Positions 4,783 through 7,005 of a stretch of DNA of 64,000 nt are shown here, piece after piece. The stretch is taken from the NCBI GenBank assembly GCA_951406725.2, contig OX597834.1, forward strand, positions 3,162,001 to 3,226,000. The letters are read 5' to 3'. Position 1 is the stretch's first letter. Each line of letters opens with the position of its first letter. A program made the position numbers and the translations under genes. The notes beneath the pieces were generated by a model. The model did no database searches. It was not told the origin of the DNA and worked only from the letters and a program-made list of their open reading frames with translations. The DNA is from Octopus vulgaris. Lineage: Eukaryota.

Positions 4783-4924
4783 CATAAAAAACCCTGCCAA
4801 AACAGACACAGTAACCTGGGGTAGTCTTCTACCCATCCAACCCTTGCATGCACGGAAGACAGACATTAGACGATGATGATGATCACGATCATGATGGTGA
4901 TGATGTACATGTGTGTATGTATAC

Positions 4925-5119
4925 TCTTCTTACTCTTTTACTTGTTTCAGTCATTTGACTGCGGCCATGCTGGAGCACCACCTTTAGTCGAGCAAATCGA
5001 CCCCGGGACTTATTCTTTGTAAGCCTAATACTTATTCTATCGGTTTCTTTTGCTGAACTGCTAAGTTACAGGGACGTAAACACACCTGTATCAGTTGTCA
5101 AGCGATGTTGGGGAGACAA

Positions 5120-5150
<31 letters not shown>

Positions 5151-5321
5151 CATATATATGACAGGCTTCTTTCAGTTTCCGTCTACCAAATCCACTCACA
5201 AGTCTTTGGTCAGCCCAAGGCTATAGTAGAAGACACTTGCCCAAGGTGCCACTCAGTGCGACTGAACCCGGAACCATGTGGTTGGGAAGCAAGCTACTTA
5301 ACACACAGCCACTCCTGTGCA
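4925..5321 (-). mobile_element. tRNA-derived SINE with CORE-like segment (octopus OR-type-like)
   Basis: A/B-box head tggctgtgtg..gggttcagtc and gcaccttgggcaagtgtcttc; many copies in the window. Confidence 0.85.
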
Positions 5322-5443
5322 CACATTAATCCCCCAACTATCGCAGGTGTTATGTTCCAAAACCTCCCACGATAGGTGAAAATCTGTGAAATAGAAATAG
5401 TACTGTACTGTATTTTTTAAAAATTATTTTTATAGTTTCTTTG

Positions 5444-5682
5444 CAGCGTGGAAGGTGTTTGTAAGCCATTTAAGAAACACACAAAAGCCGTTCGATTCAC
5501 TTCAACATTTAAGTTTAATTTGTCAAAATATTTTCGGCGCTTTAAGACCACGACCTGTTCACTGACAAAAATCCGTGCTGCATCTGAGCATCTCAGACCT
5601 TACAAACACCTTCCACGCTGCAATTGTTTTCGTTTCAGCACACGACCTCAGATCAAATCACTTGCTATGCAAGTACATCTCC
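5444..5682 (-). mobile_element. 239-bp non-coding insertion with 13-bp TSD, a 25-bp inverted repeat and an internal hammerhead-like motif
   Basis: TSD tatagtttctttg at 5431-5443 and 5683-5695; perfect inverted repeat at 5441-5465 and 5599-5623. Confidence 0.8.
5519..5569 (-). ncRNA. Minimal type I hammerhead-like motif, G3-C8 core variant
   Basis: UUUGUCA GUGAACA GGUCGUGGUCUUAAAGCGCC GAAA AUAU UU UGACAAA, with a perfect 7-bp stem I. Confidence 0.6.
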
Positions 5683-5864
5683 TATAGTTTCTTTGTATTT
5701 ATTTTATTATAAATGCAAAACAACACCACAGAGGAAATAATATACAGCAATATGGCGAGAGATTATTGTATATACACACACACACACATACATATATGCA
5801 TACATACAGTCATAGTGACATCATACACACGCATGTAGATGTACACACATACACACACAGATAT

Positions 5865-7005
5865 ATTTGGTTAGAAAGTAATTCCTGTTGCATTTCAAGA
5901 TTGCAAAGGTACAAATGTTTCTTCAGTCTTAATTAACATATTTAAACAAGATAATATTTCCCCTCGTTATTGCAAAGAAACAGGTGCAGGCATGGCTGTG
6001 TGGTAAGAAGCTTGCTTCCTCACCACATGGTTCCAGGTTCAGTCTCCCTGAGTGGCACCTTAGGTAAGTGTCATTTACTGTAGCCTTGGGTCGACCAAAG
6101 CCTTGTCAGTGGATTTGGTAGATGGAAACTGAAAGAAGCCTGTCATATATATATATATGTATGTATATTAATGTGTTTGTGTTTGTCCCCCCACCACCAC
6201 TACTTGACAACTGGTGTTGGTGTGTTTACATCCCTGTAACTTAGCAGTTCAGCCAAAGAGACAGATGGAACAAGTACCAGGATTATAAAAAATAAGTCCT
6301 GGTATTGATTTGTTTGACTAAAACCCCTCAAGGTGGTGCTCCAGCTTGGCTCTGATCAAATGACTGAAACAAGTAAAGGAATGAAAGAATAAAGATAATC
6401 CCATCTATTTGGCAAAATGCTGATTCCTTTGGGTGAAGTTCTTCAGGTTTCCAACCGAAGAAACACTCAATATCCATTTTTAACCTCTTCACAATTGATA
6501 AACCATTTTCTGTCCAAATAAATTTGCAGGAATCTGAGAAAAGATGTCAGTGAAATGGAGCGAGGCCAGGAGAATAAGGAAATTGAGGCAAAACTCCCAT
6601 ATTTAGTGCCATAACCGCTTCCGGAGTGATTCGGACAGTATATTTCCTGGCATTGGCATGCAAGAGCACCACCACTTCATACCTGACCAATGAGGGAGGC
6701 TTTTTCTGCAAATTTTTGTACAATGCTTCCGGTTGATGAAAATATTTTTCAGCTTTAAATGTTTCTTTTTCATTTAAGACTTCTTGATCAACAAAGACCT
6801 TCAGATCCCAGCAAACACAGAGCATAAGATTTCCAAGAGTAGTCTTGGTCGAGAGATTGGTTCTCCTTTTTCATTGGCTGCTGACCATTGTTCTTTTCTC
6901 TCTCCCTGTTTATTTCCTCGTGTTCTCTTCTGTCGAAGAGCATAGGCTCGAAACGTAAAAGACTTTCTCATCAATAATGCAACAGGACTTTCTTTCCAAC
7001 TTAAT
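5865..7005 (-). mobile_element. Deleted mariner fossil with a nested SINE (5983-6393) and a nested HHR-bearing fragment (about 6840-6975)
   Basis: TIR-like ends (ttggttagaaagtaattcctgttgcatt / aatgcaacaggactttctttccaac); remnant motifs LLHANAR and PYSPGLAP. Confidence 0.7.
6925..6962 (+). ncRNA. Degenerate hammerhead-like motif (A6U core)
   Basis: CUGUCGA A GAGC AUAG GCUC GAAA CG UA AAAGA. The same family occurs at 31610-31645 and partially near 8435. Confidence 0.4.

Follow-up and report, generated by a model that had tools for sequence, protein, structure and literature searches.

The 239-bp insert described here is, judged by its sequence, a short inverted insertion of a Penelope-like element (PLE), consisting of the pseudo-LTR (pLTR), the tail and the first codons of that element, and not a SINE or a retrozyme. 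It lies in a 64,000-nucleotide stretch of the Octopus vulgaris genome (contig OX597834.1, positions 3,162,001 to 3,226,000; hereafter the window). We consider it probable that this head-to-head insert of pLTR, tail and codons, with its family-wide G3-C8 hammerhead core, carries a compensated, weakly self-cutting predicted ribozyme, which would act as a dimer or with the aid of a protein.

Structure of the insert

The insert interrupts an older interspersed repeat (5323..5736; 1,304 candidates in the genome) that is not part of the element. It is bounded by identical 13-bp direct repeats on the forward strand (5431..5443 and 5683..5695, spaced by 239 bp), the final 3 nt of the left one being common to the end of the element. 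Among paralogs of the host repeat, 24 of 29 run directly from left flank to right flank with no insert. Given these empty sites, the direct repeats are a true target-site duplication (TSD), as a reading of this DNA from its letters alone (the sequence-only reading) had supposed. The perfect 25-bp inverted repeat described there (5441-5465 and 5599-5623, overlapping the left TSD by 3 nt) was also located. The insertion is young: its two TSD copies do not differ from each other, and the closest members of the family reach up to 99% identity over 147 nt. No second copy of the element was found within the window. High-copy SINE-like repeats with 12 or more matches in the window lie to either side (4903-5325 and 5980-6397), and are in part mutually inverted (5107-5317 and 5987-6197, 83%).

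The short arm (5441..5588, minus strand) is a PLE pLTR, 91% identical to the pLTR of locus L130 over 148 nt and 95% identical to that of L094. It runs from a 5' start common to the family (about 5585) through the hammerhead motif and the start of an open reading frame (ORF) to the first, short 3' end. This ORF encodes the PLE RT-endonuclease, and its first in-frame ATG (5469) and first codons occupy 5441..5469 on the minus strand. The long arm (5599..5682, plus strand; 94% identical to L130 over 84 nt) is an inverted, 5'-truncated second copy that terminates at the second, long 3' end; in translation, 27 codons of the ORF N-terminus are readable from 5601. The roughly 60 nt that separate the two 3' ends form the tail (5624..5682, plus strand). 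Between the arms, a junction filler (5589..5598) re-copies the 5' end of the element and gives rise to the small hairpin at 5583-5597.

The short arm contains a minimal type I hammerhead motif (5519..5569, minus strand). Stem I pairs 5569-5563 with 5525-5519 over 7 bp, and the core runs from G3 (5562) to A9 (5556), with C8 at 5557 and an extra unpaired G at 5555. Stem II follows at 5554-5536, with a mismatch at 5537, then GAAA (5535-5532), a palindromic stem III and U17 (5526), the predicted cut falling between 5526 and 5525. The sequence-only reading had reported a minus-strand motif with G3, C8 and this cut, which matches the letters as written; its account of core and stems stands, although it overlooked the unpaired G and the copy-specific mismatch. 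Stem II of the window copy carries two changes relative to the family form, one of them the mismatch, which has no counterpart there, and its loop type is unlike that of the intact elements fetched. The mismatch has probably impaired the hammerhead motif of this copy.

Both strands of the insert fold at energies far below those of shuffled sequences (z -4.8 and -5.6), chiefly through the inverted repeat. In the lowest-energy predicted fold G3 pairs with U17 and stem I is extended. An Rfam search of the insert gave no hammerhead match, which is to be expected of a minimal variant. The same search gave no match to a tRNA-, 5S- or 7SL-type head and the ends of the insert are PLE ends, so that the insert lacks the defining features of a SINE.

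The Penelope-like parent element

Only a minority of copies reach further upstream, the extension of one subfamily having 613 matches in the genome. Long copies lead from the repeat through a microsatellite-rich 3' region to an ORF with a GIY-YIG domain (Pfam PF01541, E 2e-5). A genome search with this domain returned 7,894 candidates, of which 150 were scored, several having long open frames. In ten long loci, frames as long as 1,025 aa (also 839 aa) encode DKSG, RT motifs, a CxxxCxxC linker and GIY-YIG, and the G3-C8 motif follows the ORF in all 10 long loci fetched. Five long copies were 98.0-99.5% identical on comparison. Intact young PLE copies reside in the same genome as the window insert. 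PLEs have indeed been annotated as recently active in O. vulgaris, ribozymes going unmentioned in the available part of that source (PMC13282606).

The linker, at residue 896 of the L128 frame, fits the CX2-5CxxC pattern given in the available text of PMC8557442. Pfam gave no RT match to the PLE ORF, and the RT was called from motifs and named homologs. L130 is a partial tandem of the form pLTR-ORF-pLTR, in which repeat and tail pass directly into the ORF. L092 and L095 were considered as tandem full elements and rejected, both being larger duplications. The single RT/GIY-YIG ORF, pLTR tandem, inverted 5'-truncated copy, one-sided tail and AT-rich TSD are those of an EN+ PLE. Since the first ~29 codons of this autonomous ORF belong to the inserted unit, its earlier description as non-coding does not hold.

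Among contigs from four runs presumed to be RNA, which cover the pLTR, some also connect the tail with the ORF; these contigs contain no joint at the acceptor-like site described below. The protein P0115, with the source name dynein regulatory complex subunit 6-like isoform, shows a 66% match to a portion of the PLE ORF, and is probably an exonised or mis-annotated PLE piece.

Copies and their ends

A 19-nt pattern spanning stem I and the core matches the genome exactly at 6,842 places (control 0), in agreement with the earlier view of a multi-copy retroposed family, and a downstream pattern has 10,267; such matches count arms, not insertions. Our sample was drawn from the beginning of contig C1 (first 30 Mb) and comprised 70 loci, anchored on the downstream pattern, away from the core; 30 were first matches and 40 were stretches out of 70 further places listed. 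The sample held 107 arms in 68 insertions, or 90 arms in 58 insertions after a conservative collapse of shared junctions. Six copies with one junction and one set of flanks (G000:C1:4383080, 19952147, 20593796, 22980904, 23690938 and 25522313) are a single insertion that has spread as the passenger of another repeat.

Two 3' positions, separated by about 60 nt, account for most arm ends: of the 90 arms, 34 stop at the short one, 51 at the long one and 5 elsewhere. At the opposite side, 28 of 90 begin within 5 nt of a common start, ~17 nt before stem I, and 7 more slightly upstream. At the predicted cut, one arm of 90 starts within 2 nt, against a background of 2.4 per 5 nt; genomic copies thus give no counterpart to the RNA ends at this site for which the sequence-only reading proposed a check. 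A non-templated G precedes the common start in 9 of 20 instances, several of which are attributable to microhomology; such a G would fit a capped RNA start. The common start resembles what we take to be an initiator, and is also preceded by a branch-point/pyrimidine/AG motif. Right upstream of it, loci L062-L091 carry a branch-point-like, pyrimidine-rich stretch that ends in AG and resembles a 3' splice site. Rather than initiating transcription, the common start could thus act as a splice acceptor and mark an intron, as in other PLEs.

Collapse left 30 head-to-head insertions, whose arms overlap by 25 to 148 bp. A long arm is joined to a short one in 26 of these and to an unclassifiable one in 4, and none combines two alike; before collapse, 33 of 37 were long plus short. 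Through this strict pairing, the two internal priming sites known in vitro can be read from the genome itself. Direct repeats of 12-13 nt were found in 16 of the 37 inverted insertions, and junctions and arm lengths differ from copy to copy. No head-to-tail array occurred among the 68 insertions from the first 30 Mb of this contig. The 25-bp inverted repeat of the window copy is the mere overlap of its two arms. Inverted repeat and small hairpin alike originate during insertion and are not features of the family; the earlier term 'hairpin-closed' was misplaced, as the repeat length and the hairpin, which is junction filler, both vary between copies.

G3-C8 as the state of a family

In its family form the motif comprises a 7-bp stem I, the core G3-U-G-A-A-C8-A9, an extra G, a 5-bp stem II, GAAA, a 2-bp palindromic stem III and U17. 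When positions 3, 7 and 8 of the pattern were left free, G3-A7-C8 made up 6,842 of 7,674 matches and C3-G8, with the same flanks, just 1. The core-independent sample had G3-C8 in 52 of 58 arms. With the intact elements included and the stems conserved, the natural compensatory G3-C8 core proposed by the sequence-only reading is supported as a family-wide state.

The motif has the make-up of minimal PLE hammerheads: type I, stems I and II, an extra nucleotide 9/10.1, G10.1-C11.1, a palindromic stem III and NUH. It departs from the literal CUGANGA core at G3 and C8, the 3-8 pair itself being retained. The active fold of a hammerhead depends centrally on this pair. A UUU cut triplet and a 2-bp stem III are unfavourable for a hammerhead. 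The family motif is likely a natural variant ribozyme, for which cleavage is predicted.

An older, decayed G3-C8 subfamily has C7, a different loop II and no loop III, G3 in these old rows being fixed by the search pattern itself. The spacers of old and young masters differ by only ~26% (36 of 49 columns the same), and the persistence of two bases is therefore no proof of selection by itself. U17 is found in 44 of 49 G3-lineage rows and C17 in 25 of 39 C3-G8 rows, under a heuristic placement that left 5 rows unplaced. In the G3 lineage, U17 would avoid a G3-C17 mispair; an engineered G3-C8 hammerhead is stated, as data not shown, to perform worse with C17 (PMC3884650, available text).

Sister families and covariation

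A sister PLE family (57% protein identity, 38% in the N-terminus) has a homologous motif, with C3-G8, preceding its ORF. A pattern excluding G3 gave 6,429 matches, against 272 for its control, and revealed several C3-G8 families. U3-G8 rows also occur, at the same pre-ORF place in related elements; the wobble families L305, L314, L315, L320, L324 and L327 form two small tree groups. L172, L173 and L181 (G000:C5:115840523-115845895 and others) belong to a sister PLE family of very recent age, in which many 1,312-aa frames are intact and contain a long asparagine-rich insert. Hammerhead position 9 is C in this family and A in its older copies, A9 having been lost.

After removal of 6 duplicates and 6 short rows, 93 of the 105 rows entered a tree for which core positions 3, 7, 8 and 9 were masked. 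Of the 33 G3-C8 rows, 32 fall on a single branch (99/94), together with 7 single-change rows and without any C3-G8 row; as the rows were picked by patterns fixing position 3 or 8, these counts cannot be taken as frequencies in the population, and the tree has no established root. The remaining G3-C8 row, on a long branch, lies outside. The tree points to the 3-8 swap as a single evolutionary event that marks one lineage. We rejected a separate G3-G8 intermediate subfamily, since G3-G8 rows are scattered on the tree and decay-like. Decayed G3 motifs with C8 or A8 at L276, L281, L292 and L297 do not join the main branch of G3-C8 rows but fall close to those with U3-G8; they are possibly a second origin of G3, for which four loci are too few.

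Across families stems I-III covary, at 88.9% paired in 29 hand-picked, well-preserved rows, against 21-46% in slid controls. In these rows the 3-8 pair is G-C in 14, C-G in 11 and U-G in 4, the full pairing being partly due to the choice of rows.

Mechanism and alternative explanations

These data allow us to propose how such inserts might arise. The RNA would start in the pLTR, ~17 nt upstream of stem I. The RT-GIY-YIG protein would nick AT-rich DNA with a stagger of ~12-13 nt, and each nick would prime internal reverse transcription, one at the short site and one at the long site. Both cDNA copies would extend toward the 5' end of the RNA and then be joined via microhomology or filler. The template would be mostly uncut RNA, a likely choice because the 5' ends pile up before stem I and not at the cut. 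The two 3' ends, the 12-13-nt duplications and the long-plus-short pairing would fit one priming event per nick. In a PLE of the anole, two internal RT start sites bound the tail, both strands are nicked and extended at AT-rich DNA, hammerhead cleavage is protein-assisted and insertion uses uncut RNA; an engineered C3G/G8C double change partially rescued cleavage of a PLE hammerhead in the same source (PMC11167929, available text).

Cleavage may be dispensable, given that copies do not start at the cut and that A9 is lost in the youngest sister family. We regard it as unlikely, yet worth weighing, that an insert of the same PLE origin carries a motif that no longer cuts, retained for its fold as a site of protein binding or a promoter element, in which the swap is structural or incidental. 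The apparently uncut template and the young family devoid of A9 would suit such a motif, as would reports that hammerhead mutants had no effect on insertion in vitro (PMC11167929) and that PLE hammerheads are poor at cleavage (PMC4209133), each in the available text. However, the sole two altered bases of the conserved core pair with each other and still form a Watson-Crick pair, all other core bases being intact; if two changes fell at random over 11 core positions, this would occur about 1 time in 165 by a post hoc estimate. The weakly self-cutting predicted ribozyme remains our preferred reading, with the predicted pairing of G3 with U17, the unfavourable cut triplet and stem III, and the single origin of the swap counting against it. 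A stronger version of it, in which the motif is a natural active G3-C8 hammerhead, the first known, fixed by selection in a thriving lineage that U17 enabled, and the sister C3-G8/U3-G8/C9 series shows the tuning of PLE hammerheads for slow cleavage, is tentative, and we lean somewhat against it.

The short form might also propagate itself as a non-autonomous, retrozyme-like mini-PLE, the PLE protein using short masters as its source. Short copies greatly outnumber long ones (6,842 core matches against 613 that carry one subfamily's upstream extension), their 5' ends are fixed, the window copy has its own stem II loop type, and non-autonomous PLE derivatives have been described (PMC8557442; bioRxiv 10.64898/2026.07.22.740005; available text of both). 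Yet short copies share subfamilies with long ones and are placed beside L130 in the tree, junctions and arm lengths all differ between copies, and head-to-tail arrays number 0 among the 68 insertions, and we judge this origin improbable. An independent non-coding SINE or retrozyme with a fixed closing hairpin and processing by its ribozyme, close to what the sequence-only reading had suggested, is scarcely credible. Such an element would be short, high-copy, TSD-flanked and hammerhead-bearing, as this one is, but its arms match pLTRs of coding elements at 91-95% identity and include ORF codons, the inverted repeat has no fixed length, the ends lie off the cut site, and neither tandem arrays (among the 68 insertions) nor a tRNA-like head (by Rfam) were found. 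The intact coding parent elements and the copy-end data refute it.

Comparison with known systems

The insert is an ordinary PLE insertion, and the new hammerhead core variant that it bears is well supported. To our knowledge, the G-C form of the 3-8 pair is known solely as an engineered rescue. The largest survey of PLE hammerhead variants is reportedly that of Lunse et al. 2017. This survey and Przybilski and Hammann 2007 lie beyond the literature covered, so that the absence of natural G3-C8 from print is not established; it was absent from the literature searched, including the available text of PMC6765202, PMC7229834, PMC6155905 and bioRxiv 10.64898/2026.07.22.740005.

By motifs and anatomy, the octopus element resembles the Neptune/Nematis EN+ PLEs. 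As far as the available text of PMC8557442 and PMC3846280 goes, these share its DKG-type RT, C-terminal GIY-YIG, CX2-5CxxC linker and (TA)n bias, together with a pLTR that includes the first codons, an inverted 5'-truncated copy, a tail at one end and a short TSD, given as 8-10 bp for EN+ PLEs (PMC3846280). Unlike the Neptune/Nematis type, with a tail of 30-40 nt, the octopus element has a tail of ~60 nt, and most of its insertions comprise the pLTR alone and share a fixed 5' start. Animal non-LTR retrozymes are likewise short, of similar size class and equipped with a type I hammerhead, but occur as head-to-tail arrays, have canonical ribozymes and form circular RNAs (PMC7229834, available text), whereas the octopus family consists of dispersed inverted pLTR pieces with codons; it has no arrays (0 of 68 insertions), and the ORF start and codons inside the unit exclude non-coding status.

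Metazoan PLE hammerheads, as described in the available text of Cervera and De la Pena 2014 (PMC4209133), are also type I, situated in the pLTR, with an extra nucleotide 9/10.1, G10.1-C11.1 and a tiny palindromic stem III, and are predicted to act as dimers. The octopus family differs in G3-C8, in an extra G where the consensus has H and in its longer stem I (7 bp). A U3-A8 variant and, in the supplement, one U3-G8 row are described in the same work. Covariation of the 3-8 pair is common to the natural core variants of Perreault et al. 2011 (PMC3088659, available text) and to ours, as U3-A8 there and G3-C8 here.

The closest functional parallel is with Poseidon of Anolis (Frangieh et al. 2024, PMC11167929, available text), where, as observed or proposed here, two internal RT sites bound the tail, targets are AT-rich, both strands are nicked and extended, and uncut RNA is the substrate. 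The ORF starts inside the hammerhead in Poseidon and 56 nt after the cut site in the octopus element. The natural Poseidon core is C3-G8, with G3-C8 solely engineered, whereas the octopus family is G3-C8 by nature. Searches with a CUGANGA descriptor miss whole families of this kind, with thousands of copies. Together, a natural family-wide G3-C8 core and its canonical sisters argue, by comparison, that the catalytic geometry of the PLE motif is maintained, although cleavage seems unnecessary for insertion, a question raised in PMC8557442 and PMC11167929.
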